Source: an uncultured Chloroflexia bacterium
GTDB lineage: Bacteria; Chloroflexota; Limnocylindria; QHBO01
Direction: 5' to 3'
Assembly (NCBI GenBank): GCA_963725885.1
Contig: CAVSAH010000006.1
Coordinates: 21,828-85,827 of the forward strand
Length of the DNA: 64,000 bases
The first letter of the stretch is position 1. Each line of letters begins with the position of its first letter. The notes beneath the pieces were generated by a model that saw only the letters and a list, made by a program, of their open reading frames with translations, was not told the DNA's origin and searched no databases. The position numbers and the translations under genes are program-made. Below are positions 19,586 through 53,914 of the stretch, one piece after another.

Positions 19586-19605
19586 TACCATCGCGCCGAT
19601 GGAGC

Positions 19606-20012: not shown

Positions 20013-20312
20013 AGCGACGCGCCGATCTCACCGGCGCCGACCGGGCTCGCCTCCATGCGCATCGGCCTGGAGTTCGGCAGCCTGGAGGGCTTCGGCGAGG
20101 TCCTCGAGCGCGCGCTGGCGCGCGGCGGCGAGCGGGGAGCGACGCTCGTCGCGAAGCTCGACATCGGCGATCTCGCCATCCACATTCCCCGGGTCGACGG
20201 GCCGTGCTGGAACTCGGTTCCGCTGGTCCACCTGCATCGGGGCGATCAGCCGACAGCCTCCGACTGGAGCACGACCGCCGGCGTCCTCGAGCGCCTCGAG
20301 CGCTACCGCTGA
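20011..20312 (+). CDS. Hypothetical protein (about 100 aa); its GTG start overlaps the upstream stop
   Basis: VSDAPISPAPTGLASMRIGLEFGSLEGFGEVLERALARGGERGATLVAKLDIGDLAIHIPRVDGPCWNSVPLVHLHRGDQPTASDWSTTAGVLERLERYR*. Confidence 0.35.
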
Positions 20313-20317
20313 GACCG

Positions 20318-21161: not shown

Positions 21162-21178
21162 GCGGCGAGCCGACCGAC

Positions 21179-21670
21179 GTGGATGATGCCGAGCGGGCGC
21201 GAATCAGGGGCCTGTTCGGGCGCTTCGCGACCGGGGTGACCGTCGTCGCCGCCCGGCACGGACCGCTGCTGGCCGGCATGACCGCCAACGCGGTGGCCAG
21301 CGTGAGCGTCGACCCGCCGGTGCTGCTGGCGAGCATCGCGCAGAAGGCGGAGACGCATCGGGCCATCGTCGGCTCGCACGCGTTTTCCATCAGCGTCCTC
21401 GCGGCCGACCAGCGCTTCCTGGCCGAGTGCTTCGCACAGCCGATCACCGCGGCCAAGCTCACCGGCTTCTGCGACGCGCCGTGGCACGAGGCCGAGACCG
21501 GGTCGCCCATCCTCGAGGGAGCGCTGGCCTACTACGACTGCCGCCTGAAGGCGCGCCACGATGCCGGCGATCACACGATCTTCATCGGCGACGTCGTGGC
21601 CGCCGGCTACCGCGAGGACGCGGCTCCGCTCCTGTACTACGCCTCGGAATACCGCGAGCTCCCCGGCTGA
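21179..21670 (+). CDS. Flavin reductase (FMN-binding split-barrel, RutF/HpaC-like)
   Basis: RIRGLFGRFATGVTVVAARHGPLLAGMTANAVASVSVDPPVLLASIAQKAETHRAIVGSHAFSISVL..DHTIFIGDVVAAG. Confidence 0.6.
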   Translation: MDDAERARIRGLFGRFATGVTVVAARHGPLLAGMTANAVASVSVDPPVLLASIAQKAETHRAIVGSHAFSISVLAADQRFLAECFAQPITAAKLTGFCDAPWHEAETGSPILEGALAYYDCRLKARHDAGDHTIFIGDVVAAGYREDAAPLLYYASEYRELPG

Positions 21671-21683
21671 CGCGGCTGCGGCC

Positions 21684-33855: not shown

Positions 33856-35929
33856 ATGATCCTCGCGGCGTCACTCGTCCTCCTCCTCGCCGGCGCGCCG
33901 CTGCTCCCGCCAGGCCCGGCCGATGCGACGGTGACCGCCGTGCCGGACACGCCCGGGGCGACGATGCTCCCCGAGGCTGCCACCTACCACGCGATCGTCG
34001 CCGACGTCGACGAGGACGGAGCCGGCGACCTCGTGCGGCTGGTCGACGCCGGTGACGGCGCGATCAACCTCGAGGCGTGGAGCGTCGACGGCGACGGAGT
34101 GCCGCACCGCATCTCCGAGCCGATCACCGTGGCGCCCTCGCTCCAGGCGACCCTTCCCGGCGAGCTGGTGTATGCCGGATCACCCAGCGTCCTCCTGGCC
34201 AGGCGGATCGACGGGGTCGTGCGCGCGACGCTCGTGCGCCAGCCGCGGTTCGAGGAGCCGGGCCTCGAGGTCGACTGCTGCCTCTTCTTCCACGACGTCG
34301 TGGCAGCCGGCGGCGCGTTGCGACTCGTCCCGGTCGCCGACGAGGGCCATGTGGCGGACGCCGTCCTCGCCGTCGACCTGGACGGCGACGCGACCGACGA
34401 GCTGCTCCTCACGCGCAGCCTGCCGCCGCTCGGGCGAGACCACGTTCCCGACCGAGGCCCGCATCCTGCGCTGGACGGAGGACGGCTTCGGGCCACCGAC
34501 CCTCACCGAGATCGACGTCGGGTCGGGATACTCGCCCTTCGTCCTCGGCGACAGCGATGGCGAGCCCGGCGACGAGGCCGCATTCATCGCCGAGCAGTCC
34601 CGTCTGCACCGCATCTCGCTCCGCGACGGTGACGTGGTGGTGGCGGAGAGCGCGGAGCCGGGCGTCGGCGCCGCGGTGGCCGTGCCCATCGACGATGGCG
34701 TCGGGATCGCGACGGTGAGCTTCGCGGCGGGCACCACGGTGCGGCAATGGCCGCGCGACCGGGAGCGCGGGGAAGCCGTGGGCGTGCTGCCGATCTACGC
34801 CGCCTCGATCGTCGGCGTGTCGCACCTCGGCGACGGCGCGGGAATGGCGATCAGGCGACCCGACCTGCCGGTGCCCGTCCTCCTCGCCCTGCCCGAGCTC
34901 CTCGACGTCGCGCCAGCCAGCGACGACCCCGTCGTTGCCATGCTCGCGGACGGCCCGGCTCCCGCGTACGTCGGCCCGGTACCGGGCGGCCGCAACGGCG
35001 GGAGCGTGGTGGCGCTTGCCGGGTCGCTGGCCGTCGACGGGAACCTGGTGCCCAGCCTGCCCATGGCCGGCGTACGGCCGGTCGGCTTCCTGGGTCCCGA
35101 CGCCGCCTGGGTCGCCCTGTGGCATGGCGACTGGCTCGGTCCGTCGCCGAGCCCGGAGAGCAGCGCCCTCCGCGACCCGATCGCGCCCGCCGGCTCGGGC
35201 GTGAGCATCGTCCCGGCCGAGGCGATCATGTCGCCGCAGGCCGGCGATGGGATCCTCGAACCACCCGTCAGCGAGGCGGCGATCGATGGGGATCAGCTGC
35301 TCGTCACGTCGGACGGCTTCGTGGCATCGGTGGCGGCTCCGCCGGGATCGCGGGTGTACGTCACCGACGACCTCGGGCTGGAGCGTTGGGTCGACATCGT
35401 GCCGGCGACAGGAGAGCTTGACGTGCGGGTCAACGTCCCCGCCAATCCCGGGCCAGGCGGCCCCCGCGTCGAGCTCGCCGTCGCGACGCCGGCGGGACAT
35501 GGCTACGCGGCCGCCTGGTCGCTGCAGGTCCTCGACGAGGTTCCCGAGCTGTCCGCGCGCTCGACGACGCCCATCGGCTCGGCGCGGGTCACGATCAGCG
35601 GCACGACCGCTCCGGGCGCCATCGTCAGCGTCGCGGGACGCGAGGTCACCGTCGGGGTCGACGGGCAGTTCCGTTCCGAGCTGGACCTGCCGCCCTGGCC
35701 GACGACGGTCGAGGTCGTCTCCACCGACCAGCTGGGCCACGCCACCGAGCTGACCGTGGTCGGAGTGGGCTGGTATGACTACCGCGGGCTGCCGTGGATC
35801 GCGATCGCGGCGATGGTCGTGGCGATCGGAGGCGGCCTGCTGGCGGTCCGGGGTGCGCGGGTTCAGCCAGAGGACGCGCACGACGATGATGCCGTGATCA
35901 CCGACGAGCTCGACACCGAGGAGCTCTAG
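33856..35929 (+). CDS. Large hypothetical secreted protein with N-terminal signal and C-terminal transmembrane anchor; frameshift near 34430
   Basis: MILAASLVLLLAGAPLLPPGPADA.. (ORF 33856..34632) continues in ORF 34052..35929 (..AIVSVAGREVTVGVDGQF..). It ends LPWIAIAAMVVAIGGGLLAV followed by an acidic tail. Confidence 0.5.
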
Positions 35930-38916
35930 CCCCGATCAGCTCCCGCGCCGGCGTGCGGCGAGCCGTTCGGCAAGGGTCTCGGCCGAGAGTCGGATCCGCC
36001 GCGGACGTCGGTGCCGGCGGTTCGGTGGCTGCGGGCGCGGGCGCGGTGCGGGATGACGTCGCAGCGCTGCTCGGGCGCCGGATGGGCCGCGATCCGCGGT
36101 CGATGCCGGCGCCGTGATCGGTGACACGACCTCCGGCGCCTGCGTCGCGGCGGCGCCGCGCCCGGCACGCCGCTCTCCGCGGGCACGCGCCGCTCGCAGC
36201 TCGCCCAGCCCTGCGACAGCTTCGGGCTCGCCGCCCCCGATGCCCACGCGTCGCGCGGCCCAGGACCGCGCCCGGCTCGAGGTCGGAGCGGGCCAGCGCC
36301 ACGCGCCGCACGCCGACGTCGAGGGGCACGAGCACGATTGCCAGGAGGAGCAGCCACGGCCAGATCGGTGTCGGGAAGGCGCTCGCCGCGAGGTCGTGAC
36401 GCCACACTTCCGCCCCGGGCTCATCCGCGGCGAGCGGCAGCTCGCGTCCACCGCCCGCGGTCGCGAATCCGGCCAGCGGCTCGGTGTCCACGCCGAGGCG
36501 GCGGTACTCGGCGGCGGCCGGGGAGACGATGCCAAGGGTCCTGCTGGCCGCATCGGTCCGCTCCTCGTCCTCGTAGGTCTGCGCCACCCGGACGAGGTAG
36601 GCGCCCGGATCGGCGGCTCGCACGCGCCCCGCGTACCGCCCCGGGCCGACCTGGGTGAGCTCGGCCTGAAGCGGCTCCAGGTCCGGTGCCACGAGGCGCA
36701 GGACGGTGCGGTAGAAGTTGCGCGGCGCCCCGTCGTCGTCGAACGAGGTGACCTCGACGTCGAGCTCACCGTTGCCGGCGGGCGTGAAGCGCACGTCGAT
36801 TCCCTCCGCGTCCTGCGGCGGGAAGCGTCCACGCCACGAGCTGCGCGGTCAGGGTGCCGAACTCGGCGGTGCCGATCCACGGGGCGGCCCATTGCTCGCG
36901 CGCGTCGGACGTCCAGGCGACCGCGCGGCCGAGGCCGTACTGCCACTGCGCCAGCAGCGGGTCCTCGCGGGCGGTCAGGAGCGACACGGTCGCCGATCCC
37001 TTGGGAGTCGTCGCGTTGTACCCGAGGAGCTGCGGAAGCCGGCCGGCATCGAGCCCGTCGAGGATCTCGGAGCTCGCCGAGGGAATCGGCTGGAACGCCT
37101 CCTCGACGATGCGCTCGCCGGCCGTTCGGATCGTCTCGCGCAGGAAGATGTCGGGGATCGTGGACGCGTCGGGGGCGTTGTAGTAGCGACCGCCCGACTC
37201 GTCGGCCAGGCGGCGCAGGACGTCGGCCGACCCGCCGCCGGTCCCGATGGTCGACAGCGTGATCCCGGCCTCGCGCAGGTCGTCGAGCAGCTCGTCGTAC
37301 GCGCCGTGGGTCGACCAGCCGTCGGTCACCAGGATGATGTGGCGCAGGGTCGCGGGGTTGTCGCGGAGGTCCTCGTAGGCGGCCTGCAGCCCGGCGAAGA
37401 TGTTCGTCGCTGCCGTCGGCGCGGAAGCCGAGCCCGTCTCCGATGGCGCCGAAGTCGATCGGCGCGGTGCGGACCGCCCAGTGCGCGTTCTCGTCGAAGG
37501 TCACGACGCCGAGCTGGTCGGTCGGGGCGAGGGCCTCGGCGGCGCGCAGAATCGCCTCCTTGGCGATGTCCACCTTCTCGAAGCCTCGCTGGCCCGACGG
37601 GTTGGCCGTGTCGCGCGAGTCGCCGGTGCAGTGGCAGTCGGCCATGCTGCCCGACTTGTCGACCACCGCGACCATCGCGACGTCCGGCGAGCGCTCGCGG
37701 TCGCGGACGCTCATGTAGACCGGCATCGTCTCCTCGAGCGGCGTGTCGAGGTAGCCGCCGGCGCCGAAGCTCTCGCGCCCGCCGAGCATGACCAGGCCCC
37801 TGCCGAGGTCGCGCACGTAGACCTGGAGCGTGGCCATCGTCGCCTCGCCGAGGTCGTCGGCCGAAACGTTGTCGAGCACGATCGAGTCGTAGCCGGCCAG
37901 CGAGGTCAGCGCCGACGGCACTCCACCGAGCTCCGACCACCGTCACCTCGAGGTCGCCCTCGCCCAGCGACGCGACGAGGTCCGCGGCTCGCGCGGCGTC
38001 ATCGGTCGCGACGAGCACGCTGCGGCGGACCCGTTACGACCACGTAGGCGTCGGCCGCGTTGTTCTCGGCGAAACGGTCCTCGTCGGGCTCGATGACGGC
38101 CCGGAAGACGTGGAACCCGGCGCTGTCGGCCGTGACGCTGAACGGGATGGTCGTGATACCCGGCTCGAGCTCGATGTCGCGGGTGGTGACGGTCGCGCCG
38201 TCGGCAAGCAGGCGGATCGTGGCGCCGGTGGCGACCGTCGAGCGGACTCGCACGGTCATGTCGATCGTCTCGCCGACGCGCGCTCCGGTCGGTGCCGCGA
38301 GCTCGTCGATGAGCACCTCGGCCGGCTGGTCGGAGGACGGAGTGACGACGTCGAGACGGATGCCGCGGGCGGCGGCCGCGGCGATGGCATCGGTCTGCCT
38401 CCCCGGAGGTGTCGTTGCCGTCGGACAGGAGCACCAGGCGCTGCTGCATCCCGGCTGGCATGATCGCCGCACCGAGGCGAACCGCGGCGGCGACGTCGCT
38501 CGCCCCCGCGACCGGTGCCGATGCCGGGTCGTCCAGCTCCGCGAGCTCCGACGGCAACCGATCGACGAGCGCGTTGGCCCCGAACACGACCACGCCGGCC
38601 CGATCCCCGTCGGGCATGTCGCGCACCGCGGCGCGTGCCCACTCGACGAGCTCCTCCGAGGTCGGCGTCGAGCATCGAGTCCGATGCGTCGAGGAGGAAC
38701 ACGGTGGCGCAGACGATCGGACGGGAGCGCGAGCCGCATCCCGGCCAGCGACAGCACGAGGCACGCCGCGAGGACGAGCCGAATGACGAGCGATGCGGCG
38801 CGGCGCCCGGCGGGGAGCGTGCGGGATGCCGCCATCCATCCAACGACCACGATCACGACCGACGGCACCGCCAGCCACAGCCACATCGGGTCGCTGAAGT
38901 TGAGCGGGAAGCTCAT
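35898..38916 (-). CDS. Giant membrane protein: BatB-like N-terminal transmembrane plus VWA domain fused to a second VWA domain and a C-terminal transmembrane segment (about 1000 aa). Many frameshifts; the 3' end is uncertain between 35898 and 36330.
   Basis: ATG at about 38916 overlaps the upstream stop (ATGA). MSFPLNFSDPMWLWLAVPSVVIVVVGWMAA..; VWA-1 ..TVFLLDASDSMLDADLGGAR..VVVFGANALV..LVLLSDGNDT; VWA-2 ..AMVAVVDKSGSMAD..LGVVTFDENAHW..ILVTDGWSTHG..ADESGGRYYNA; ..IWPWLLLLAIVLVPLDVGVRRV. These pieces lie in ORFs 37999..40317, 38256..38843, 37943..39049, 37326..38018, 35936..37921, 36766..37329 and 35898..36794. Confidence 0.55.
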
Positions 38917-40884
38917 CGCGCCGCGTTCTCCGAGCGGCTGCGGGCGCCGACCGAACGCCCGCGCCATCGTCCTGCGCGTCGGGCGATGGAAGAGGATCCA
39001 CTCGACGGCGAGGAGCGCCAGTGCGACCAGGGCCAGCGGCCACCACCACTCGGTCCGCGACGGCTGGCCCGAGGTCGGAGCGTCGTCGGGGACGCGGCCC
39101 ATGTCGGTGAGGCGCGTCGGGTCGCCCGGGGCGACGTCCGACTCGTCGGCGCTGAACAGGTTGACCGCCGTCGTGCCGAGCAGCGTCCCGTCGACCGCGC
39201 CGTCGTCGCTGATGGCGCGGACCTCGCGCAGGCCCACCGCCGCGGCGCCGGGAATCGTCACCCGCCCATCGACCACCGGGAGCTCGACGCGCGCGTCGCC
39301 GTCCGCGGCGCCGGGCAGCCCGTCCGCGCCGATCGACGTCACGGCCACGCCGGTGACCTCGGGATCCACACTGACCGAAAGCGACTCGCCCAGGCCCATG
39401 GAGGAAGGCAGGATCCCGTCGGCCGTCGGCAGGAGGTAGTCGACGACGTTGCTGACGAGCAGCGGGAACGCGACCTGCAGCGGCAGGTCCGACTCGTCGA
39501 GGTCGAACGCCACGAGGCCGATGCGCTCTCCGCCGGCCTCGCCCACCGCGATGAGCGGCGCATCGCGGGTCGATGCCACCACCGCGCGCATGCCGGCGGC
39601 GAGCTCCACCTCCCTGGCTCGTCCGATGTGGACGCTGGCGAGGTCGACGAAGCGGAGCAGCGGGTCATCGGCGGTCGACCGCTCGATGAGCGGCCCTTCG
39701 ATGCGTCCCCCGACGCTGCCGAACGCCCCGTCGGCATCGGGGGCGACGTAGAGCGCCGCGGCGTCGGGCGCCTCATCGGGCACGACACCGTCGAAGACCA
39801 CGAGCCCGTAGGGCGTCCCTGCCTCCTGCGCTTCCTCCATGGCATCGGCGTAGCCCTCGGCACTCGACCGCGTACAGCTCGAGACGGGGGAGGAGGGCCA
39901 GCGCGCTCTCGAGGTACGCGGATCCCTCGCCGACGAGAAGCGCCCGGGTCGCGTCGGCGGCCGGCACGATCGCGAACGCCCGGTCGTCGGTGGAGAGCGC
40001 ATCGGACCCTGCCAGGCGCGCCTCGACGGCCACGGCCGATGGGGGAACGGTCGTGACGAGTGCCTCCGCCCGCTGGCCGGCCGCGATCGTGAGGTCCCGC
40101 GCGTCGACGAGCGCCCCGTCGGCGTAGATCTCGAGTCTCCTGGTGGCGTCCGCGCTCGACGGATTTGCCACGGCCACGAACAGGTCCAGCTGCGCCCCAC
40201 CCGAGCGGCGCAGGGCCGAGAGCGCCGCGATGGCCTGGTTGGCATCGGTCTCGCCGACGCGCTCGACGAGAACCGGAGCACCGACGCCGAGCTCTGGCAG
40301 GTCGTCGCCGGCGGCATCGGTCACGACCACCACGGTCGAGTCGCTGTCGCGAGCGGCCAGTGCCGATGCCAGGGCGAAGGCATCGGTCAGGTCGCCCACC
40401 TGCTGGGTTGCCTCGAGGCCGTCGATCGCCTCCAGCGCGGCCTCGCGGTCATCCGTCTCGGACACGAGCACGGTGGCGGTGTCGGCGGCCGCGACCACGG
40501 TGATCCGGCCGCCCTCGCGGCAGCCGTCCGACGACGTCCGTCGCGCGCTCGCGCGCGAGCGCCATGCGGTCCTCGGCGTCGGCCGGATGTGGCCATCGAC
40601 GCGCTGGTGTCGACCACGAGAACCACGTTCGCGGCCAGGTCCGAGGTCGTGGCGGCGAAGGGGCGGGCCGCGGCCATCACCACGAGCGCGGCGATGAGGA
40701 GCTGGAGCAGCAGCAGCCAGCTGAAGCGGAGACGCTGCCACGGCGCGTTGGCCTCGAGGTCGCGGACGAGCTGCTGCCAGAGGAAGGTCGACCCGACCGG
40801 CACGTCGCGCCGTCGCAGCCGGAGCATGTAGAACGCCACGATCACCGGCAGGCTGACGAGGCCGATGAGGGCCAGAGGCAGGAT
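38913..40884 (-). CDS. BatA-like protein: N-terminal two-helix aerotolerance-regulator-type membrane domain plus VWA domain and C-terminal transmembrane segment; frameshifted
   Basis: ATG overlaps the DUF58 stop (TGATGA). MILPLALIGLVSLPVIVAFYMLRLRRRDVPVGSTFLWQQLVRDLEANAPWQRLRFSWLLLLQLLIA..ANVVLVVDTSASMA; ..GGRITVVAAADTATVL..; ..TEWWWPLALVALALLAVEWILFHR. These lie in ORFs 40387..41010, 39773..40975 and 37999..40317. Confidence 0.6.
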
Positions 40885-40886
40885 CA

Positions 40887-41778
40887 TCACTCGACCACGC
40901 GTCGGCGGCGGAGGACGTCGAAGAGCAGGTCGGCGAGGTCGATGTCCGAGGGCACCACGACGTACGCGCCGCCACGACGCGACACGAACGTCGCGATCTC
41001 GGCCTGCCACTCGGCCAGGCGTGCGCGGTAGCGATCGACGAGGTCGTCGTCGCCGCTCACCTCGACCGGCTGGCCGGTCTCGTTGTCGACGAGCCGCGCG
41101 TCGGGCGGCACGTCGGGATCGAGCTCATCGGGTGCGAGGAGGTGGAGCACGGAGAGCTGCGAGCGCGTTCCGGCCAGGTCGCGCAGCGCGTCGAGGTAGC
41201 CGGGGTCCATGAGGTCGCTGATGAGGAGGAGCGGCCCGCTGCCGCGCATGCGCGACGCGTAGGCGCGCGCGGCAGCGGCGAGGCCGGTCATGCGCTCGGT
41301 CCGCGGCTGGGCGAGGAAGTCGAAGAGCTCCACGGCCCGTCGCTTGCCGCGGATGGGCCGCATCGCGGTCGCCGTGCCGTCGCCGAGGAACGCGACGCTG
41401 ACGCGGTCCATGCTCGCCAGGCCGAGGTACCCGAGCGCCGCCGCGGCCCGCCGCGCCGCGTCGAGCTTGTTCGGCGTCCCGAAGTCCATCGAGCGGCTCG
41501 CGTCGACGAGGACGTGGACCGTGACGTCCTCCTCCTCGACGAAGAGCTTGACGAAGAGGCGCTCGAGTCGGGCGTAGGCGTTCCAGTCGAGCTGGCGCAG
41601 GTCGTCGCCGGCGGCGTAGGTCCGGTAGTCGGCGAACTCGACGCTCTGGCCGCGCCGCACGCTGCGACGCTCACCCTTCATCCGCCCGGCGATGAGCCGC
41701 CGGGAGGCGAGCTCGAGCTGCTCGAGGCGGCGCAGGAAGGCCTCGTCGAAGAACGGCGCGCGCTCGGTCGACGGTCAT
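40887..41778 (-). CDS. DUF58 domain protein (MoxR partner), one-base frameshift right after the start
   Basis: MTVD then a shift to ..APFFDEAFLRRLEQLELASRRLIAGRMKGERRSVRRGQSVEFADYRTYAAGDDLRQLDWNAYARLERLFVKLFVEEEDVTVHVLVDASRSM (ORF 40887..41681). Confidence 0.7.
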
Positions 41779-41804
41779 CGGCTCGGCGGCCTGCGTCGGC
41801 CGAT

Positions 41805-41822
41805 CGTATATACGTATATACG
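41805..41822. promoter_or_regulatory. 18-bp perfect palindrome CGTATATACGTATATACG in the 59-bp MoxR-DUF58 intergenic gap
   Basis: Read directly from the sequence. This is an AT-rich island in a roughly 70% GC locus; it may be an operator, an RNA processing site, or an artefact. Confidence 0.4.
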
Positions 41823-41837
41823 GCGACCGGGCACCGA

Positions 41838-42875
<1,038 letters not shown>

Positions 42876-42879
<4 letters not shown>

Positions 42880-44698
42880 TCGCTCGGCTCCAGGCGGCTG
42901 AAGTAGTCACGCACGAAGTCCTTCAGGGTGATCGGCACCTGCTGCCGATCGAGCGCTGTCTGCGCGTAGTCCCGGAACAGGTCGTAGACGGACCGATACG
43001 GGACGACGCTGTCGTTGTCGAACCCGGCTCCGCTGCCCGATCCCGACTGGTCGGTGCCGCCGTTCCCGCCCGATCCGGCGATGAAGTCGGGATCGCCAGG
43101 CCGACCGAAGCGGTCGAAGTCGACGAGGACGTCGGATTGGTCGTCGACCCCGAACCCCTGGTTGCCCTGGGTCGGGCCGTCGAAGCCACCGGTGCGCAGG
43201 CCGCCGCCGGGAATTCGACGCACCGTGGTCCCGCCGCCGCCGCCCGGCTGTGATCCGGGGTTGCTGCCCGGGTTCGAACCCGGGTTGCTGCCCGGGTTGC
43301 ATCCCGGGTTCGACCCGGGTTGCTGCCGGGATTGCTGCCGGGGTTGCTGCCCGGATTGACCGGATTGCCCGGGTTGGATCCAGGGCTCGCGCCCGGCTGG
43401 CCTGAGCCGCCGGGTTGGCCGGGGCTGCCGCAGGTGCGCCGATGCGCCGGCTGTCCCGACGCCCCCGGCTGTCCCGATGCCCCGGGCTGTCCCGAGGCGC
43501 CCGGCTGCCCCGAGGCACCTGGCTGGCCGGCTGTTGGTTGGCCGGCACGCGCCACCTGCCGTGCGCCGTCCTGGAGGGCCGACTGCGCCGCGGCGATGTC
43601 GCGCTGGAGCTGGCGATCGCGGGAGGCACCCGCGCAGGGCATCCGCGGCATCCCGCAGGGCGTCCTCGGCGGCCTGGCGATCCTCCTCGGCTGCCGGTCC
43701 GCGCGGCACGCTCGAGCGCGTCGGCGGCCTCAGCGAGGGCTCGCGCCGCCTCCGGGTGCGACGTCGCTCCCGACTGAGCCGCCTGCTGGAGGGCGGCGGC
43801 TCGTGCCTCCGCCTCCTGTGGGGTCATCGAGCCTGCCTCGTCGGCGAGCTCCTCGAGGTCCTCTGCCGCCTCCTCGGGGTCACCCTCGGGGTTCGCCTCG
43901 TCGTCGTCTGTCGCAGCCTGCGAAGCGGCCCTGGCGAGCTGAGTCAGGGCGGCATCGCGCTGCGTCGCCTCGGGATCGGCTCAGGCGCGCGAGCGCCTCC
44001 TGGACGGAGCCGATGCGGGCGAGGGTCGCCTCGCGGTCGGCTCCCTGCTCGCGCAGCTGCCGGGCGAGCTCACGCAGCTGCGCGCTCGAGCTCCTCTCGG
44101 CGGGGATCGGGAGACGTTCTCCTCGGCAAGCTCGTCGGCCACCTCGTCGATGCGATCGGCCACTCGCTCGGCGGCCTCACGTGCGGCAGCGCGCTGCCGA
44201 AGGATGTCGTCCTGCGGATTCGGCCAGGCAACCAGCAGCAGCGTCATCGCGAGGCCGACGCCGGCGATGGCCAGCGGCCGGCGAGCGAGCCGCGGTCGGA
44301 ACGCGCTGCGCGCGTCGACGCTGCCGAGCTGGGCCCGCGCGTCGGCCAGCTGTCGGGCCTCGAGCGGGATCGTCGCTCTCGCGCTCGGCGATCTCGAGCG
44401 CCGTCCCGAGCCGCTGGCGGAGCTCGAGCTCCTCGTCGGCGCGGCGGGCAGTCTCCACGAGCGAGGGCCGGCGTCGCGCCACGTCCGCGGCCCATCCCGC
44501 GACGCCGATTGCCACGATCGCCGCCTGGAGCCAGGTGGCGTGCTCGAACGGGAAGGCGCGGGCTGCGAGCTGCACGAGCGCCACCGCGACGAAGGTGATG
44601 GCCAGCGCGACCAGGGCCGAGCGCACCGCGCGGCGCCACCACAGACGCCGGCGCAGTGCACGGAGGCGCCGCAGCGCAGTCGGTTCCGAGGCGCGCAT
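42876..44698 (-). CDS. Membrane protein (about 600 aa) with three transmembrane helices, a long coiled-coil, tandem (GQPGAS)n and (SNPG)n low-complexity repeats, and a conserved C-terminal domain. It is ATGA-coupled to moxR.
   Basis: MRASEPTALRRLRALRRRLWWRRAVRSALVALAITFVAVALVQL..WLQAAIVAIGVAGWAA (ORF 44177..44698); ..LAIAGVGLAMTLLLVAWPNPQDDILRQRAAAREAAERVADRIDEVADELAEE (43981..44796); MTPQEAEARAAALQQAAQ.. (42907..43827); QPGASGQPGASGQPGASGQPGASG..SNPGSNPGSNPG (42923..43651); C-terminus DFDRFGRPGDPDFIAG..VPYRSVYDLFRDYAQTALDRQQVPITLKDFVRDYFSRLEPSE* (42876..43709). The DNA shows 15-bp tandem repeats at about 43255-43380 and 43440-43540. Confidence 0.5.
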
Positions 44699-44725
44699 CG
44701 ATCGCGGCGCCCACGGTGCGATCGC

Positions 44726-45815
44726 TCATACGACCTCTTCCTCGATCTCCACCCTTGCCGCTTCGGGCGCCCGACGCGCGCGGCGCAGGCCGCCACGCAT
44801 GCCGGCGGGGACCACGAGACGCATCGACACGACGGTCAGCACGATCCCTAGGGCCACCATGCTGAGGGCGATCCGCGGCCACCAGTACCCAGCGCCCTCG
44901 TCGACCACCTGCTGGTCGGGCACACCGCCCGACGGGCTCGCAGCCGAACTGGTCACACACGACACCTTCGTCGACGCCGATCGGCTGATCGGGACGCGCT
45001 CCGGCCATCTGGCCGAGGAGGCTCGACAGGCCTGGGTCGCCGCCGCTGACCGCGATGACATCGACCATGGCGATGCCGGGGTTCACGTAGAGCAGGACCT
45101 CGGGCGCCGGCTCCGGATCGACGACGAAGCCCGAGGCGGACTGGTTGGCGAAGATCGTCCAGAACACGAAGATGGCGCCGGTCCCCAGGGTCAGGGCGAG
45201 CACCGTGATGTACGTCAGGACCGTTGCGGCCTGGGTTCGTTTCAGCAGCGCGCTGAAGAAGAGGCCGATCGCGCCAAGTGCGAAGGCCACGGCCAGGAGG
45301 ACCACCTGCTGCCGCACGATGTCACCGACGGTCACTCCGCCGTACATGAGGACGATGGCGGTGATCGGGATCGCGGCCAGGATCATGAGCACGACATATG
45401 CGAGCGCGGCGGCGAGCTTGCCGACCACGATGGCCCCCGGACGCATCGGCGTGCTGACCAGCAGGTCGAGGGTCTGCTTCTCGCGCTCGAGGCTGATCTG
45501 TCCCGACGTTGCTGCCGGGGCGATGAAGCAGATCAGGATGAGCTGGAAGATCGAGAGGACCACGAAGATCGACTGCCCGACGATGGCCGATGCGTTCGCC
45601 GGCTGGATGCCGACGCCAGTGCTCGGGGCGGCCAGGAGGTAGACCGCGTACGTGATGAGCGCCAGCAGGCCGAGGTAGATGGTGAGGAGCACGAACGCGC
45701 GTCGACCGCGCATGCGGGATCGCAGTTCCTTGGTCATGATCGTGCCAACCCCGCCGAGGAACTCGCGCGGAAGGGACCGCCGTGCCGGCGCGATGACCGT
45801 CGCCTCGGCGCTCAT
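44726..45815 (-). CDS. ABC-2 family transporter permease, frameshift near 44990
   Basis: MSAEATVIAPARRSLPREFLGGVGTIMTKELRSRMRGRRAFVLLTIYLGLLALITYAVYLLAA..SGQISLEREKQTLDLLVSTPMRPGAIVVGKLAAALAYVVLMILAAIPITAIVLMYGG.. (ORF 44244..46499). C-terminus ..YWWPRIALSMVALGIVLTVVSMRL.. (44726..45061). Its ATG overlaps the ATPase stop. Confidence 0.6.
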
Positions 45816-46786
45816 GCCGCCTCCTCCTCGACCTGGCCGGTCACCTTCAGGAATATCTCCTCGAGGTCGCTCGTCGCCTGGGTGAAGCCGGCCACGCGGT
45901 GCCCGGCGTCGATCATCGCCCGCAGGAGGGCGGCCTGGTCGTCCTGGGTGCCGTCGAAGGCCACCTCCAGTCGGGTCGACCCGGCCGAGTGCTGCGACGG
46001 AAGGACGTCCCCGACCCGCGGATCGGTTCCCAGCCACTCGCTGACCACCCGGACTTCGTCCTCGTCGCCGAGGACGTCGATGCGCAGGAGGGCGGTGGCC
46101 CGCAGGGACCGTTCGATGTCCGTGATCGAGCCGGCGCGCAGCACCCGCCCGTGATCGATGATCGCGACGCCGGTGCACATTTCGCCGAGCTCGGGGAGGA
46201 TGTGGCTGCTGACAAGGATCGTCTTGCCCATGCCGCGCAGCTCGCCGAGGATCTCGCGCATCTCGACCCGCGCCCGCGGATCCAGGCCCGATGCCGGCTC
46301 GTCGAGGATGAGCAGCGCCGGGTCGTGGACGAGCGTGTGGGCCAGGCACAGGCGCTGGCGCATGCCGCGCGAGAGGCTCTCGACGTATGCGTCGCGCTTG
46401 TCGACGAGGCCGACGATCTCGAGCAGCTCGCCGATCATGCGGGCTCGGCGCTTCGCCGGCACGTCGTAGCAGCGGGCGAAGAAGTCGAGGTACTCCCACA
46501 CCCGCAGGTCGTCGTAGACACCGTAGAAGTCCGGCATGTAGCCGATGCGGCGGCGCACCTCGATCGGGTCGGCAAGGACGGGGATGCCGGTCACGAACGC
46601 CTCACCGGCGGTCGGGGCGAGCAGCGTGGCGAGGATCTTCATCGTCGTCGTCTTGCCTGCCCCGTTCGGGCCGACCAGGCCGTAGATCTCGCCCGCTCCG
46701 ACCACGAGGTCGATCCCGGCCACGGCCAGGTTTGCGTCATAGCGCTTTACGAGGCCACGGGTCTCGACCACCGGGACCGCGGTCAT
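45812..46786 (-). CDS. ABC transporter ATP-binding protein
   Basis: Intact 324-aa ORF: GLVGPNGAGKTTTMKIL (Walker A), LSRGMRQRLCLAHTLVHDPALLILDEPASGLD, VSSHILPE. Confidence 0.8.
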   Translation of the reverse strand: MTAVPVVETRGLVKRYDANLAVAGIDLVVGAGEIYGLVGPNGAGKTTTMKILATLLAPTAGEAFVTGIPVLADPIEVRRRIGYMPDFYGVYDDLRVWEYLDFFARCYDVPAKRRARMIGELLEIVGLVDKRDAYVESLSRGMRQRLCLAHTLVHDPALLILDEPASGLDPRARVEMREILGELRGMGKTILVSSHILPELGEMCTGVAIIDHGRVLRAGSITDIERSLRATALLRIDVLGDEDEVRVVSEWLGTDPRVGDVLPSQHSAGSTRLEVAFDGTQDDQAALLRAMIDAGHRVAGFTQATSDLEEIFLKVTGQVEEEAA

Positions 46787-49204
46787 GGCGCCAGCACTCC
46801 GCGCACCTCGGCGCTGACGAAGACGCCGGCCTGGCCGAAGCCGGCATCGCTGGTCCCCGTGATGCGGACCTCGATGAGGCCAGTTGGGCTCAGGGCCGAG
46901 TCGACGTCGTCGATGACGAACGAGGATTGATCGCTCAGGTCACCGAGCATCTTCCACCCACCGGTCGCCGGGTCGCGTAGTTCCACCGTGAAGCCCTCGG
47001 GCCAGAAGCCGGCGAAGTCACCCTGCTCGCCCAGGACGATCGAGTAGTCCGGGCCGACCACGATCTCGACCTCTGTGGCCTCGAGCCCGGACGCCTCGAG
47101 CGGCAGGGCGATGCCGAACGTGACGAAGCCGTCGTTGATGATCACGCTGCCCGCCTCGAACCCGCCGACCACGTCTCCGTCGATCTCCGTCACCGAGACC
47201 GACATCTGGGCTGGTCGGACGGTCACTGCCCCGGTGCCGAGACCAGGCTGCACGGCGACGACTTCGACGACGCGACGTGAGCCGTCGCGTCGTGACGTCG
47301 TCGACCTCCACCGGGAGCACGCCCTCGCCCTCGTGCCACCCGATGACGAAGGGTCCGCGCCCGAACGTCACCGCCTCCATGCCGGCCCAACCGCCGTAGC
47401 CGACGAGGGCGTCGATGACCTGGCGACGCAGCGCGACCCGGCGTTGCTCATCAGTCGCGCTTTCGAAGCCGCCGAAGCCGTAGACCTGGTCCGACGCGCT
47501 CGACCCGTTGAAGTTCGGGTCGCCGAACTGGACTTCGGCGCTCGCTCCCGGCGCCAGGTCGCCGATGCGCTCGCCGCCTGCCGAGCTCACCAGCGCCACG
47601 TCGGTCAGCCGTTCGTCGGACACATTCGTGACCGTGCCGACAGCCGCGCCGTCGCGAACCGCCCAGGTGACCTCGAGCGCCGGCTCTGCATCGGCGATGG
47701 CGCTGGCCTCGATGCCGGCGAAGCCGAACGACGCGATGGAAAGCCCGCGAAGGTATGCCGGCCGTCCCTGCTCGATCATCGTTCCGCGGGGTGCCGGGGC
47801 CCCCCCGTTGTCGATGAATCCGTCGCCGGGAATCGGCGCCGACAATGCATCGGCGTCGACGCTGAGATCGTACGTGGAGCGGTCGGGTGAAAAGACGCCG
47901 GCGAACGTCTCGACCAATGCGGTGCCAGCCGACGTCGTTCGCACGACGGCGACCTGGTTCACGACGATGTCAGTGCCCTTGATGGTGCGTCCGATGCCGA
48001 ACGAGCAGGCACTGAACGTCACGATCAGGATCGGAGCGGTGACCCAGGCCAGCTCTCGTCGGTCCCATCGGCGGAGTGCGACGTAGCTGATCGGGCCGAT
48101 GAGAAGGATGTAGGCGACGATCACGCCGATCAGCAGCTCGGCCGAGGGTACGGTGAGCGTTGGCAGCGTGGAGAGGGCGTTTCGCATTGCCGACCGCATC
48201 TGGTCACGATCGCCGGCGCCACCGAGGAATTGGTCGATTGCCTGGGTCGTCGGGTCGACGCGATTCCAGAAGGTGATTGCCGCTGCCCATCCGGCGAGTG
48301 CGTCACTCGCCAGGTCCGCCCCCACGAGAACGACCTGCCCCGCGCCCTCGGGACGCATCGACAGAATCACGGTTCCGTCACTGCCCTCGATCACGGCGCG
48401 GGCGTCGTCTCGCAGCGGTCCGGTCGAAACGGTCGCGGTGCCGAGGTCCGTATCGGCGGCGGCGACCCAGTCGGCGAGCGGGGCGAGCGAGACGCCATCG
48501 GCCGACGCGAGGGTCGTCACCGGGAGCAGGGCAGCGAGCCCTGCCGTTCGGGTCTGCCAATCGGCGCCACCGATGACGATCAATCGGCCGCCGTCGGCGA
48601 CCCAGTGTGCGAGGCTGTCGCGCTGCCCGCCAGTGAGAGCGGTGGCGTCGCCCGCCCAGACGATCGTCCCGAGCCCGGACAGCGGCTCCGGCCGCTCGGG
48701 CAGCTCGGCAACGCCGAATGACACGATCTCGGGTCGCATTCCCTGCCCGGACGCCGTCAGCTGCTGTCGGAGCGTGCCGCGCGAGTCGCCGACGACGGCG
48801 ACCTGCCCGCTCGCCTGCTCGAGCACGCGAATCTCGCCGACGGCGGACACGCTGCCGTTCGTCTCCGCGTAGGTCACGGTGAGCTCGGTCTGGAATGCGC
48901 CGGGCCGCGCGTACAGGGGCACCACCTTGCGGGCGCCGGCCGGGAGGTCGACGTGGCGCCGAACGGTGCCGTTGTCCGTCTCCGCCACGAGGTACCCATC
49001 CGTCGGCGGGCCCTCGTTGACGAGCGTGACCGAGAGCGCGACCCAGCCCCCGACCTGGTAGCGCCCTCCAACCAACGGATGCAACTCGATCTGCACCGCG
49101 CTGGCGGCCATGGTCGGCATCGTCAGCGCGCCGACGACGACGCACGCCGTCGCGGCAGCAAGGACAAGGCGGCGGGCGCGGGTCATCGCGGACAGGATCG
49201 GCAT
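46783..49204 (-). CDS. Large secreted/membrane protein (about 800 aa) with signal peptide and internal two-helix transmembrane hairpin, probably the auxiliary component of the ABC-2 transporter (DUF4350/GldG-like by context). Frameshift near 47270; its stop overlaps the ATPase start.
   Basis: MTRARRLVLAAATACVVVGALTMPTMAASA..; ..HWVADGGRLIVIGGADWQ..; transmembrane segment LLIGVIVAYILLIGPISYVALRRW..WVTAPILIVTFSACSFGIG (ORF 47018..49204); C-terminus in ORF 46783..47253. Confidence 0.5.
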
Positions 49205-49333
49205 GGTCCCCTTTGGTCGAATGTACGCGTGGTCGAGTTCCCGCTAGACGTGGCGAGCGCCCGACCGGTTGCAGGCGCCCGGCGCTGACGAGTGTACGGA
49301 CGCACGAGCCGCCGATGCTAGAGTCCGATCGGG

Positions 49334-51238
49334 ATGGACGCATCGGTCGAGGGTCCGGACGAGCTGGAGCGCCACCTCGAGCGCCAGATGCGAGCGCAGG
49401 AGCGGCAGCTCGCCTGGGCGCGGCTCGGGATGGCGTTGCTGGCCGGAGCCCTCCTCCTCGTGCTCGTGGTGTGGGGACAGACCGACCTTCTCCCGTTGCT
49501 GGCGCTGGTGACGGCGCTGGCGCTTTGGAGCCTCGTCGTCCCGTGGCTGCTGCGCCGGTTCCCGGCACGCGAGGTCGGGATCGTGAGCACGGTCGTCGAC
49601 ATGGCCGCGGTGACGATCGCTGTCTACGCAGCGCCGGGCGCCCCCGACCTTTACCTCTTCTACGGGCTCGTCATCCTCGGGGCGGCGCTGCGGTTCGGAC
49701 TCGGGGCGGCCGTCTGGTCGTCGGTGGTGATGAGCGCGATGTACCTCGCCGTCGTCCTGCTCGGCCGGGGACAGGACCCGCCCCCGCCGGAGGTGCTGGG
49801 AGTTCGCGTCGCGTACCTCATCGGGTTCGGTCTCCTCGCCGGACTCTTCAGCCGGATCGTCATCGGCCGCGCGACCGAGAACGCTCGCCTCCAGGTCCGG
49901 CTTGCCGAGGAGGAGCGCCAGCAGGCAATGACCCGGGAACGAGAGGTGCTGAGCCGGCTCGGCCGGGACTTCGGAGCGTCGCTCGACCGCGAGGCCACCC
50001 TGCGGGCAGTGGCTGCGGGTGCCGCGCCGATCCTGGGCGGGGCGACGGTGGTGTTCACGGTCGAGGAGGCGGATCGCCGTCTCGTGCCCGCGGCCGCTGC
50101 CGGCCCGGATGGGGAGCTCGTCGAGGCATGGCGACGCTTCGCGGCCGAGCGGCCCGCTCGGCTGGGAGAGGGCCTGATCGGCGGCGTGGGGGCGACGGCG
50201 GCACCACGGCAGGCTCACTTCGACGAGGTCGCGACGGGGGACCCCGATGGGATGCGCGCGCTCGGCCTCGACTGGCTGCTCGCCGCGCCGATCCTGGCCG
50301 GTGGACGGCTGCACGGGGTGCTTGCCAGCGCGGGGCGGGCCGACCGCCCGTTGGGGGACGGGATCATGCGCATGGCGGAGGCGGTGGCCGACCGGGCGGG
50401 GCCGGCCCTCCAGAACGCGCAGCTGTGGTCCGACCTCCAGGATCGGATGGCGCGCGAGCAGGCGGCGCAGCGCATCAAGGACGACTTCCTCTCCATCGTG
50501 AGCCATGAGCTGCGGACACCACTGACGAGCATTCAGGGCTACTCACAGCTGCTCGAGGCGCGGCTCGCGGCGGACCTCGACATCGAGTCCAAGGAGATGG
50601 CGCACCTCCGCGTCATCCGCTCCCAGGTCGGGCGCATGCGGCGCCTCGTCGACGACCTGCTCGACGTGAGCCGCATCGATCGCCGCGGAGCGGTGAGCAT
50701 CGAGACGGTCGACTTCGACCTCGCCAACGAGGTGCGCGAGGCCGCGGCGCGCATCGCCCGCGAGCACAGCGACCGGCCGGTCGAGGTGACGACCTCGGGC
50801 AGCCTCGCCGTCCATGCCGATCGTGACCGCATCGGCCAGGTGCTGAGCAACCTGCTCGAGAATGCGATCAAGTACTCGCCCGACGGCGGCCCAATTCGCG
50901 TCAGCGCCGAGGGCCGCGGGGGAGAGGTCGAGGTGCGCGTCGCGGACACCGGCATCGGGATCGCCCCGGAGCACCGCGACAACGTGTTCGAGCGCTTCTA
51001 CCAGGCCGATGGGGACTCCGGGCAGCGCCGCTTCGGCGGCCTCGGTCTCGGCCTCTACATCAGCCGCGCCATCATCGACGCCCATGGCGGCCACATCTGG
51101 GCGGCCGGCAACACCGAGGACGGGAGGGGATCGGTCTTCGGCTTCCGCATCCCGCGCGTGCCGATGACGCTCGCGTCGGCGGCCGTCGCGCCCACCGGCG
51201 AGCCTCCCGCGTTCGTGGTGCGGCGCCGGGAGTCGTAG
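49334..51238 (+). CDS. Sensor histidine kinase: N-terminal multi-helix membrane domain, GAF domain, HisKA and HATPase_c
   Basis: Intact 634-aa ORF: ..FLSIVSHELRTPLTSIQGYSQLL..LLENAIKYSPDGGPIRV..DTGIGIAPEHRDNVFERFYQ..GGLGLGLYISRAIIDAHGG. Confidence 0.75.
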   Translation: MDASVEGPDELERHLERQMRAQERQLAWARLGMALLAGALLLVLVVWGQTDLLPLLALVTALALWSLVVPWLLRRFPAREVGIVSTVVDMAAVTIAVYAAPGAPDLYLFYGLVILGAALRFGLGAAVWSSVVMSAMYLAVVLLGRGQDPPPPEVLGVRVAYLIGFGLLAGLFSRIVIGRATENARLQVRLAEEERQQAMTREREVLSRLGRDFGASLDREATLRAVAAGAAPILGGATVVFTVEEADRRLVPAAAAGPDGELVEAWRRFAAERPARLGEGLIGGVGATAAPRQAHFDEVATGDPDGMRALGLDWLLAAPILAGGRLHGVLASAGRADRPLGDGIMRMAEAVADRAGPALQNAQLWSDLQDRMAREQAAQRIKDDFLSIVSHELRTPLTSIQGYSQLLEARLAADLDIESKEMAHLRVIRSQVGRMRRLVDDLLDVSRIDRRGAVSIETVDFDLANEVREAAARIAREHSDRPVEVTTSGSLAVHADRDRIGQVLSNLLENAIKYSPDGGPIRVSAEGRGGEVEVRVADTGIGIAPEHRDNVFERFYQADGDSGQRRFGGLGLGLYISRAIIDAHGGHIWAAGNTEDGRGSVFGFRIPRVPMTLASAAVAPTGEPPAFVVRRRES

Positions 51239-52567: not shown

Positions 52568-53914
52568 ATGCCCAGGGTCGCGCCGTTTCGGGGTCTCCAC
52601 TATGCGCACGCGCGCTTCGGCGCCGGTGCGGTGCCGGCCCGCGTGCAGACCAGCGACGACGCCGATGCGCCGCCCGCGAGCCTGGCCGACGTGACCGATG
52701 TTGCCTGCCCGCCGTACGACGTCATCAGCGACGCCCAGCGCCGCAGCACTGCTGGACCGTGATCCGCGCAACGCGGTCAGGCTCGAGTACAGCGCCGACC
52801 CCGACCCGCACGCGGCCGCGGCCTCGACGCTCACGGGCTGGCTGGCCGACGGCACCCTCGAGCGGCGCGCCGAGCCGGCGGCCTACTACTACCGCCACGC
52901 GACCTCGGCCGCTCCGGACGACCTCGTCGTCGAGGGGATCGCGCTGCGCGTGCTGCTCGAGCCGTGGGGCGATGGCATCCGGCCCCACGAGCACACCATG
53001 CCCGGCCCGAAGGCGGACCGACTGGCCCTGCTGCATGCCACGCGCACGCAGCTGAGCCCGATCCTGGCGGTCTACTTCGATCGCTCGGAACGGCACCACC
53101 ACCTCATGGCGCGGGCCTGGACGGACGAGTGGCGCGCGCGCGACGACGACGGCCTGCTCCACCAGCTGGCGGCCTTCGAGGCCGACGACCGGCTCCTGGG
53201 CCACCTCGGGCGCCAGACGTTCTTCGTCGCGGACGGCCATCACCGCTACGAGACTGCGCTCGCCTACCAGGCCGAGGTTCGCGCCGATCCGCGCTTTACG
53301 GCGGCGGATCCGGGGAGCCTCGCGGCCGACTGGATCCTCATGCTTCTCGTCAACGCGGAGCTCGCCGAGCTCGAGATCCTGCCCACTCATCGGCTCCTGC
53401 TCGAATCCGATGCCGATGCGCTGCGCGCGCTCGTCGGCGGGGACGACCCGCTATGGCAGTCCATCCCCGTATCGCCGGAGGGCCTCGACGGGGCCCTGGC
53501 CGATCGGGCCCCGAGCACGCGGCCCCGCGTTCGGGCTGGTGCTGCCCGGACGACGACGGGTTCCTGCTCCTCGGCGACACCGACGGGATCGAGGCGAGGC
53601 TTCGCCGAGAGGTGATGTCCGGCGCGTCGCGGGCCCTCGACCTCGCCGCTCTGCACACAACGATTCTTGGCGACCGCCTCGGCATCACGGCCGACGATCT
53701 CGCTGCGGGCACCCGCCTCGCCTACACTAGGGACGCCGACGACGCGCGCCAACGGGTGGCCACCGGCGAGGCCGCGGCCGCGATTCTCGTGCGCTCGACC
53801 CCTCTCGACCAGATGGCCGACGTGGCGACCGCCGGCGACGTGATGCCACAGAAATCGACCTACTTCTATCCCAAGCTCCTGACCGGGCTGGTCTTCAACC
53901 CCCTGGAGGACTGA
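52568..53914 (+). CDS. DUF1015 family protein, two frameshifts
   Basis: MPRVAPFRGLHYAHARFG..VACPPYDVISDAQR (ORF 52109..52762); ..AAYYYRHAT..HEHTMPGPKADRLALLHATRTQLSPILAVYFD..FFVADGHHRYETALAYQ (52698..53615); ..PQKSTYFYPKLLTGLVFNPLED* (52964..53914). Confidence 0.55.

Follow-up and report, generated by a model that had tools for sequence, protein, structure and literature searches.

The 64,000-nucleotide window analysed here, taken from contig CAVSAH010000006.1 of an uncultured Chloroflexia bacterium, carries on its minus strand, between positions 49204 and 35936, a run of eight genes (g1 to g8) in which an ATP-binding cassette (ABC) transporter of the ABC-2 type is followed by a Bat-like cluster of MoxR, DUF58 and von Willebrand factor A (VWA) proteins. 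With moderate confidence, we interpret the run as one operon for an envelope-spanning complex of a single-membrane (monoderm-type) bacterium that is composed of two separable modules, and the many frameshifts within it as artefactual. The locus is best read as an envelope complex akin, in bacteria, to the DUF4350-MoxR-vWA system predicted for archaea. Few bacterial gene clusters without an accepted function are as widespread as those of the MoxR-DUF58-VWA (Bat-like) type. In the variant described here, and in two phyla, such a cluster is linked with an ABC-2 transporter of its own, whose partner has the GldG fold, and with a putative stalk protein. A concrete hypothesis follows from this: the products could form a machine that assembles the envelope or surface, with an exported substrate or with an ectodomain driven mechanically. 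Because the cluster is present in cultivable Brevibacillus, while for the Limnocylindria only metagenome-assembled genomes (MAGs) are available here, an old open question now becomes testable.

Organization of the operon

Pfam matches and tblastn with intact orthologues agree on the gene order that a first-pass annotation of the window had given. The first gene, g1 (46783 to 49204, minus strand, as are all eight), encodes a GIFT-domain membrane protein of ~805 amino acids; it starts with an ATG at 49204, and a frameshift lies near 47275. It is followed by g2 (45812 to 46786), an intact gene for a 324-residue ABC ATPase of the DrrA/GldA-like subfamily, and by g3 (44726 to 45815), an ABC-2 permease (ABC2_membrane_2) recognized from Pfam, tblastn frames and hydropathy, with at least one frameshift near 44935-44970. 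Next come g4 (42876 to 44729), coding for the stalk protein of ~620 residues, which belongs to no known family and was described from family alignment and tandem repeats (~8 frameshifts), and g5 (41838 to 42879), whose product is a MoxR AAA+ ATPase with Pfam AAA_3 and AAA_lid_2 domains and which has ~6 frameshifts between 42396 and 41934. The DUF58 gene g6 (40887 to 41778; Pfam DUF58, 4.6e-31), whose product is VWA-like, is shifted just past its ATG at 41778-41776. The last two genes are g7 (38913 to 40887), for a BatA-type VWA protein of ~655 residues identified by Pfam BatA and VWA_2 matches and by tblastn, with frameshifts at 40584, 40517 and 39865, and g8 (35936 to 38916), for a two-VWA protein of ~990 residues with ~8-10 frameshifts.

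Start and stop codons overlap at six of the seven junctions. Four of these had been named before and all four are present: the ATGA overlaps of g1/g2 (46786-46783), g2/g3 (45815-45812) and g4/g5 (42879-42876), and the GTGATG of g6/g7 (40890-40885). Two more ATGA overlaps were found, one at g7/g8 (38916-38913) and one at g3/g4 (44729-44726), the latter hinging on the final frame of g3, which is uncertain. The sole exception is g5/g6, with a spacer of 59 nucleotides (41779-41837). A consensus scan of the region for sigma-70 promoters and intrinsic terminators, which is weak and uninformative for this phylum, returned neither. The earlier description of a single, tightly packed unit is thus supported, and two of its boundaries have been moved. 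The TGA at 35938-35936 closes the operon, and we place the true stop of g8 there because the C-terminus that precedes it (...ETLAERLA(A)RRRG) is conserved; the end formerly given, 35898, belongs to another frame. Likewise, the BatA-like gene had been ended near 39773, and the actual extent of g7 puts that boundary with g8 about 850 bases too far upstream.

Frameshifts and frame correction

In the window, g1 and g3 to g8 are each broken as open reading frames (ORFs), and g2 alone is intact. A plot of G+C by codon position (overall G+C of the window, 72%) indicates minus-strand coding from ~49.2 to 35.9 kb, with phase switches far outnumbering gene boundaries. When ORF fragments were scanned against Pfam, the families named in the first-pass annotation were recovered, with several single domains split across frames: one frame covers positions 1-114 of the AAA_3 profile of MoxR and a second frame positions 99-130, the VWA domain of g7 is in a different frame from BatA_N, and one VWA domain is divided into 1-50 and 76-172. 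In total the operon region contains ~30 frame changes in 13.3 kb, and tblastn with proteins of intact relatives gave for every gene a chain of high-identity segments hopping among the three minus-strand frames.

We corrected the frames by a frameshift-aware alignment guided by the proteins of locus L001, which comes from a short-read assembly. About 34 shifts were required relative to these orthologues, mostly one extra base each, and a few of them, at alignment ends, are probably spurious. The corrected proteins, all eight at full length, are 54-88% identical to those of L001. Correction brought MoxR to 84% identity, compared with 60% from a single frame; over its whole length, g1 has 87% identity to orthologue P0077, and g8 is 84% identical to P0186. 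Within the corrected gene bodies there are no in-frame stops.

These figures bear on whether the ~30 frameshifts are real and the operon a genuinely decayed set of pseudogenes, an explanation that we judge highly improbable. The density of frame changes in 13.3 kb would suit decay, and no exact copy of the DUF58 fragment or of the ABC ATPase is on record. Our interpretation as artefact is also opposed by the intactness of several genes of 2-2.8 kb elsewhere in the window and by the frameshift sites themselves, which lie outside homopolymers and show no significant bias toward short motifs (TCGA and GATC among those tested; TCGA was observed 11 times, with 7.1 +/- 2.4 expected). Together these observations leave the error process unexplained. 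However, fragmentation is no heavier in the operon than around it: the average coding-phase segment spans 887 nucleotides in the operon and 877 in the whole window (medians 420 and 360), compared with ~1000-1700 (medians 720-1800) in clean relatives. Noisy long-read MAG loci (L043, L045, L066) resemble the window in segment length, and many 'MFD' relatives likewise yield multi-segment tblastn matches. The neighbours of the operon, an acetyl-CoA synthetase-like gene (32.7-34.1 kb) and a convergent gene (33.9-35.9 kb), are shifted too, and the corrected gene bodies combine freedom from nonsense codons with high identity to orthologues. Given that stops are absent after correction, that the flanks are shifted, that segment length is alike throughout the window and that noisy MAG relatives look the same, the frameshifts are most likely assembly errors, and we presume that the organism has a working operon.

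The nearest locus is only ~78% identical at the nucleotide level, and at that distance the indels are not placeable by direct comparison; gene models taken from the window need frame correction against relatives. Phase switching recurs about every 880 nucleotides throughout the window, for example at 1.5-2.6, 21.8-30.2, 32.7-35.9 and 52.7-54.7 kb, and a DUF1015 gene at 52698-53615 is also truncated or shifted. The contig appears to bear the kind of indel noise seen in long-read MAGs after poor polishing.

Conservation and modularity

Scanning the genome collection with the DUF58 fragment returned 66 loci with 77-92% amino acid identity, mostly from Candidatus Limnocylindria or Chloroflexota/Chloroflexia MAGs, and the next-best matches were Brevibacillus species at 37-42%. 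These matches place the window in Chloroflexota, class Limnocylindria, and not in Actinomycetota, the taxon assumed in the first-pass annotation. In L001, L003 and L041 the region is covered by eight long plus-strand ORFs, and collinearity of the whole set extends to 45 Limnocylindria-type loci, where each apparent absence coincides with a contig end. As evidence of linkage this conservation within the Limnocylindria is weak, because synteny extends past the operon to the flanking kinase, QueG, convergent and acetyl-CoA synthetase-like genes.

Conservation also crosses the phylum boundary, reaching from Chloroflexota of soil, other Chloroflexota among them, to Brevibacillus. In 14 Brevibacillus-type loci the eight genes stand in the same order and have similar sizes (818, 308, 286, 577, 327, 293, 624 and about 950 amino acids for g1 to g8), with compact junctions that include three overlaps of four nucleotides, and the flanks are unrelated (proline dehydrogenase, GntR-aminotransferase, multicopper oxidase). 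At 10 of the 14, g4 is too diverged for tblastn and an ORF with the motifs of the family occupies its place. The full module is likewise found in two neighbourhoods of distant g4 homologues (L081 and L086), and in expanded form in Aggregatilinea (L082, 11945-19690). The Aggregatilinea locus contains genes for proteins of 230 and 206 residues, a second ABC ATPase with a 294-residue partner between MoxR and DUF58, and a 903-residue protein before g7.

A rival explanation would be that two independent systems, an ABC-2 exporter with a GldG-like accessory and a Bat-like module, are co-transcribed with no common substrate or contact. We consider this unlikely, and the partial loci are what speaks for it and counts against a single complex. 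The MoxR block stands without ABC genes and g1 in L084 (g4-MoxR-DUF58-g7, also without g8) and in L085 (g4-MoxR-g7-g8); distant g1 homologues in L087 and L088 are followed by ABC_tran and ABC-2 genes, on short contigs with no MoxR genes in view; the g1 homologue of L090 has no adjacent ABC gene; and ABC-2 exporters are generic. Independence is harder to reconcile with the occurrence of both blocks in the same order in Chloroflexota and Bacillota amid unrelated flanks, with the ATGA overlaps that join g3 to g4 and g4 to g5 in the window, and with GATase1-like ectodomain modules common to g1, g8 and, weakly, g7. A precedent exists in the archaeal DUF4350-MoxR-vWA linkage (PMC5898192). We conclude that g1-g2-g3 and g4-g8 are two evolutionary modules which are repeatedly found joined in one operon. 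The partial loci also settle the affiliation of g4, which had been grouped with the ABC part preceding the Bat-like operon: L084 and L085 keep it with MoxR in the absence of the ABC genes.

The ABC unit and its GIFT-domain partner

The ABC ATPase and the permease form an ABC-2 transporter, with ABC_tran (2.2e-27) beside ABC2_membrane_2 (4.2e-14 to 5.9e-17), both above cutoff and in genes that overlap by ATGA. Walker A, signature and Walker B motifs are readable in the translation of g2, and hydropathy gives g3 six transmembrane (TM) segments and a C-terminal extension, the frame of which is uncertain. In NCBIfam, drrA and GldA are among the best matches of g2 (GldA second-best), both below cutoff, and GldF is the sole match of g3. 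The scores fall well short of the equivalog cutoffs, at 218.1 bits for GldA (TIGR03522, cutoff 402.6) and 28.9 bits for GldF (TIGR03518, cutoff 288.5).

From its N-terminus, the product of g1 has a TM or signal helix and a beta-sandwich, followed by an alpha/beta domain of the GIFT/GATase1-like type; after a TM hairpin it ends in beta-rich ectodomains. The fold of its alpha/beta ectodomain is of the GldG/IFT52 type and DUF4350/DUF7408-like; in Pfam, matches to these two families are sub-threshold in the Limnocylindria, and the Brevibacillus g1 reaches DUF7408 above cutoff. An AlphaFold2 model of orthologue P0077, built from an alignment of 118 sequences (pLDDT 83.5, pTM 0.83), has the N-terminal helix, the beta-sandwich, the alpha/beta domain at 134-294, the TM hairpin at 355-409 and then ~400 residues of beta-rich domains. 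Against NCBIfam, including the GldG-family model TIGR03521, g1 gave no match, as it did against PF09822 (ABC_transp_aux) in Pfam scans, and its profile found nothing among PDB sequences.

The MoxR block

In the other module, MoxR matches AAA_3 at 1.4e-44 in the window, over two frames, and at 2.4e-63 in the intact gene of L003; with AAA_lid_2 it has the domain pair of the MoxR class found in Bat-type clusters. As in such clusters, the DUF58 gene follows, here 59 nucleotides downstream, and the DxSxS signature of the metal ion-dependent adhesion site (MIDAS) is kept in DUF58 and in all three VWA domains.

The spacer between MoxR and DUF58 contains a perfect, AT-rich palindrome of 18 nucleotides, CGTATATACGTATATACG (41805 to 41822, minus strand), which occurs once in the window, whose G+C is 72%. 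The inverted repeat GTATAT..ATATAC is found at this junction in 24 relatives; across 1.04 Mb of loci it occurs at one other place. All 23 distinct sequences preserve pairing at stem pairs 1-7, and 22 of the 23 at pair 8 (as TA, GC, CG or TG); pairs 8-10 covary (TA/GC/CG), and the loop measures three to five nucleotides. The folding energy is not exceptional (z -0.96), and the support is comparative only. The palindrome could be an RNA hairpin involved in processing or stability, or a palindromic operator. In L003, L008, L019 and L061 an insert of ~200 nucleotides (~9770-9990 in locus coordinates) takes its place, with the shared motif GAAT(T/C)CGGCCA...GGCCGATACGC; it may be a small mobile or structured element.

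Both VWA proteins are anchored in the membrane. In g7, the double-TM BatA N-terminal domain (BatA_N, PF07584) and a MIDAS VWA domain (VWA_2), the combination typical of Bat-type clusters, are followed by an ectodomain of ~400 residues, with a weak DUF7408-like signal (E 0.04), and by a C-terminal TM segment. The order in g8 is TM hairpin, first VWA domain, beta-sandwich, GATase1-like domain, second beta-sandwich, TM segment and a basic, cytoplasmic tail of ~110 residues ending ETLAERLAARRRGS. The second VWA domain is nested inside the GATase1-like domain, as the two parts of the GATase1-like profile (positions 29-141 and 172-244) lie before and after a complete VWA domain. Beta-sandwich domains occur only inside g1 and g8.

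The first-pass annotation had seen in g8 a BatB-like unit with an appended second VWA domain, an unusual fusion into one giant protein. One gene it is: every relative examined has it as a single gene, and a split into two was not seen. The nested arrangement replaces the appended one, and neither this protein nor g1 is rare, with 1711 g8 homologues at E<=1e-10 among 8000 candidates scored, typically of 960-1000 residues and annotated as 'VWA domain-containing protein' or 'uncharacterized membrane protein', and 1393 clusters (at 50% identity) in the g1 family at E<=1e-30. Directly after the MIDAS motif of the second VWA domain, g8 has a Cys-His-Cys insertion, DKSGSMADCHCTG (~37.6 kb; alignment positions 418-430), invariant where it occurs, in the Limnocylindria, L081 and L085. 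An additional metal site and a disulfide are both conceivable; a metal site as a family-defining trait was considered and dropped, the Brevibacillus proteins being without the insertion.

The remaining member of the block, g4, begins with TM segments and a conserved segment of ~70 residues (RPsL..AR..D..LGL.eRL.TALEL), continues with a further TM segment, PNPQ and a long coiled coil of Ala, Glu and Arg, and then enters Gly/Pro/Ser/Asn/Gln repeats, which are encoded by tandem DNA repeats of 12 and 18 nucleotides at 43242-43358 and 43435-43525. A second conserved motif, PY..V..Y...A...L....P.....VRDYFS.LEP, marks the C-terminus. Neither Pfam (whole protein, and pieces at E<=5) nor NCBIfam gave a match, and the single match among PDB sequences was a designed coiled coil. 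All homologues are annotated 'hypothetical protein'. One candidate homologue from Bacilli, P0056, was set aside as a coiled-coil/low-complexity false positive, with no module around it.

Comparison with known systems

The best known relatives of the MoxR block are the Bat and Bat-like clusters of Bacteroides, Leptospira and Borrelia (BB0170-0176), and it might be asked whether the locus is a classical Bat (Bacteroides aerotolerance) operon for tolerance of oxygen or oxidative stress. We regard this as very unlikely. MoxR, DUF58 and a protein with BatA_N and VWA domains are common to both, and the VWA domain of g8 is structurally closest to BatB. However, the VWA proteins are here two to three times larger (655 and 990 residues), with a second, C-terminal anchor and with GATase1-like and beta-sandwich domains; the ABC-2 transporter, the GIFT-domain protein and the stalk protein are additions foreign to Bat operons; and the hosts are Chloroflexota and Bacillota. 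Moreover, a Pfam match to TPR, SH3 or BatD-type domains, as expected of BatC, BatD or BatE-type components, was found in none of the eight proteins. Relatives carrying the module, Brevibacillus included, are aerobes, so that an oxygen-specific role seems unlikely. The same conclusion follows from the lack of BatC/D/E-type components taken together with the deletion of all bat genes in Leptospira biflexa, which left oxidative-stress resistance unaffected and the aerotolerance phenotype disputed (PMC3557215).

A closer parallel is found in archaea, where operons of arCOG01314 (DUF4350), MoxR (COG0714) and vWA genes are predicted to encode a complex for secretion or membrane remodelling (Makarova, Galperin and Koonin 2015, PMC5898192). 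They combine a membrane-anchored protein, whose extracellular GldG-like domain is of the flavodoxin/GATase1-like type, with MoxR and an extracytoplasmic vWA protein with Ig-like domains (PMC5898192). Here too a COG0714 MoxR and extracytoplasmic vWA proteins share one operon, and g1, with its GIFT/GATase1-like fold and sub-threshold DUF4350 match, is a candidate counterpart of the GldG-like protein. The linkage of a GldG-like protein, MoxR and vWA, which had been thought unusual, has been described before in archaea. The differences are that our host is bacterial, that a TM hairpin lies within the GldG-like protein, which is paired with an ABC-2 transporter of its own, that DUF58 and BatA_N-type anchors are present, and that the g4 family lies outside the archaeal set described. 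Separate Ig-like or S-layer proteins (COG4743, PF07760) gave no Pfam match among the operon proteins.

With GldA/GldF/GldG of Bacteroidota, the ABC unit has in common the NCBIfam matches of ATPase and permease and a partner with the GIFT fold, which takes its name from GldG and IFT52. In contrast to that system, the scores lie far below the equivalog cutoffs, g1 stands first, and there is no type IX secretion or gliding context; g1, at ~800 residues, also has extra beta-rich domains that set it apart from GldG, and the fold alone is common. Among diderm bacteria, the Rhizobium leguminosarum cluster RL3499-RL3502, of MoxR and VWA genes, is reportedly tied to envelope protection or integrity. 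The membrane-associated MoxR and VWF/VWA cluster Arc2 of P. aeruginosa (PA4317-23) is tied to envelope protection or integrity (PMC8926400). For these two diderm clusters no ABC-2/GIFT module or g4 family has been reported; the comparison concerns gene content.

Since MoxR-vWA pairs also occur in conflict systems and our MoxR has a secondary match to the bpMoxR profile, we considered a role in phage defence or conflict, as in ternary systems of the MoxR-vWA kind, and find it exceedingly improbable. Of the eight proteins, PADLOC matched just the two ATPases, and these only through a generic ATPase fold; Pfam scans of the operon proteins showed no beta-propeller or effector domain, and the chromosomal context is stable across the whole class. 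Full-text literature searches did not find this combined cluster described as such. The locus is thus a Bat-like MoxR/DUF58/VWA module joined to a GldAFG-like ABC unit and to a stalk family without known relatives; nothing in it is categorically new.

Proposed function

The distribution of Lys and Arg and of hydrophobic segments predicts that the large domains of g1, g7 and g8 lie outside the cell. This agrees with the BatA-type protein BB0173, whose VWA domain is periplasmic by experiment (PMC5700661).

What the analysis shows is which domains the genes encode, in what order they stand, how their starts and stops overlap and that they are conserved across phyla; from this, and from the predicted topology, we infer the following mechanism. 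The first module (g1-g2-g3) would be a GldA/GldF-like ABC-2 transporter with its GIFT-fold partner, the TM hairpin of g1 probably docking on the permease. The second (g4-g8) would comprise, in the cytoplasm, the AAA+ ATPase MoxR and DUF58 as its adaptor, the membrane proteins g7 and g8, anchored at both ends and displaying MIDAS-VWA, GATase1-like and beta-sandwich domains outward, and g4 as a coiled-coil/low-complexity stalk with a conserved juxtamembrane segment. MoxR/DUF58 may act from the cytoplasm on short loops or tails of g4, g7 and g8, for example on the conserved basic C-terminal helix of g8, and would in this way drive or license the VWA ectodomains to assemble at the surface as a metal-dependent scaffold. 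To this scaffold the ABC/g1 unit would deliver a substrate, or else a mechanical input that changes its conformation. The net role might be the building, remodelling or maintenance of a cell-surface layer, or secretion, and would not be oxygen-specific. An envelope function of this kind fits the envelope-related roles of MoxR-VWF clusters such as P. aeruginosa Arc2 (PMC8926400).

This proposal should be interpreted with some caution. The topology derives from hydropathy only, and the structure model of g8 (pTM 0.41) is of no better than moderate confidence. Furthermore, MoxR and DUF58, being cytoplasmic, cannot touch VWA domains that face outward, which makes their coupling conjectural. A more ambitious version of the envelope complex would be a trans-envelope machine of single-membrane bacteria, a counterpart of the predicted archaeal DUF4350 system, in which MoxR/DUF58 and the GldA/GldF-like ABC unit are two ATP-driven motors working on one surface apparatus of MIDAS-VWA, GIFT, Ig-like and g4 components, for secretion, surface-layer assembly or surface motility, with the hairpin between MoxR and DUF58 setting the ratio of upstream to downstream gene products. 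We regard this version as speculative and quite unlikely.

Flanking genes

A GAF-HisKA-HATPase_c histidine kinase (Pfam; 49334 to 51238, plus strand) lies 129 bp from g1, and had been put forward as a candidate regulator. The gene is indeed intact and divergent, and it adjoins the module in 42 Limnocylindria-type loci. However, the adjacency is confined to the syntenic Limnocylindria: the kinase does not stand next to the module in Brevibacillus, L081, L082 or L084-L086. The gene beside it in the window is QueG-like, and no response regulator was found next to it. Regulation of the operon by the kinase is possible but unsupported.

A DUF1015 gene stands directly beside g1, in divergent orientation, in L081 (3609-4919) and L086 (3907-5265). 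In the window, DUF1015 is found at a distance of 3.4 kb upstream from g1, and the GAF kinase and the QueG-like gene occupy the interval. That DUF1015 adjoins g1 in those two loci and is separated from it here suggests that DUF1015 and g1 were neighbours first and that the kinase came between them later by insertion.

At the other end of the operon, the convergent gene (33935 to 35929, plus strand) encodes a protein of ~620-660 residues with a C-terminal membrane anchor and a weak match to Glucodextran_B (Ig-like). It has matches in 43 loci, with 36-44% identity and the same position in the best-matching ones. In two copies of the module from outside the Limnocylindria, L081 (region 19503-21977) and L086 (20088-20957), a sortase gene follows shortly downstream of g8, and in L081 a secreted protein of 740 residues precedes it; this neighbourhood hints at a link to cell-wall-anchored surface proteins. 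Finally, near-identical operons, of Brevibacillus or Limnocylindria type, are found on contigs labelled as Bathyarchaeia, Angelobacter, Binatia, Zixiibacteriota or Steroidobacteraceae MAGs (L070, L025, L027, L031, L033, L040, L050), and these contigs are probably binning contaminants.

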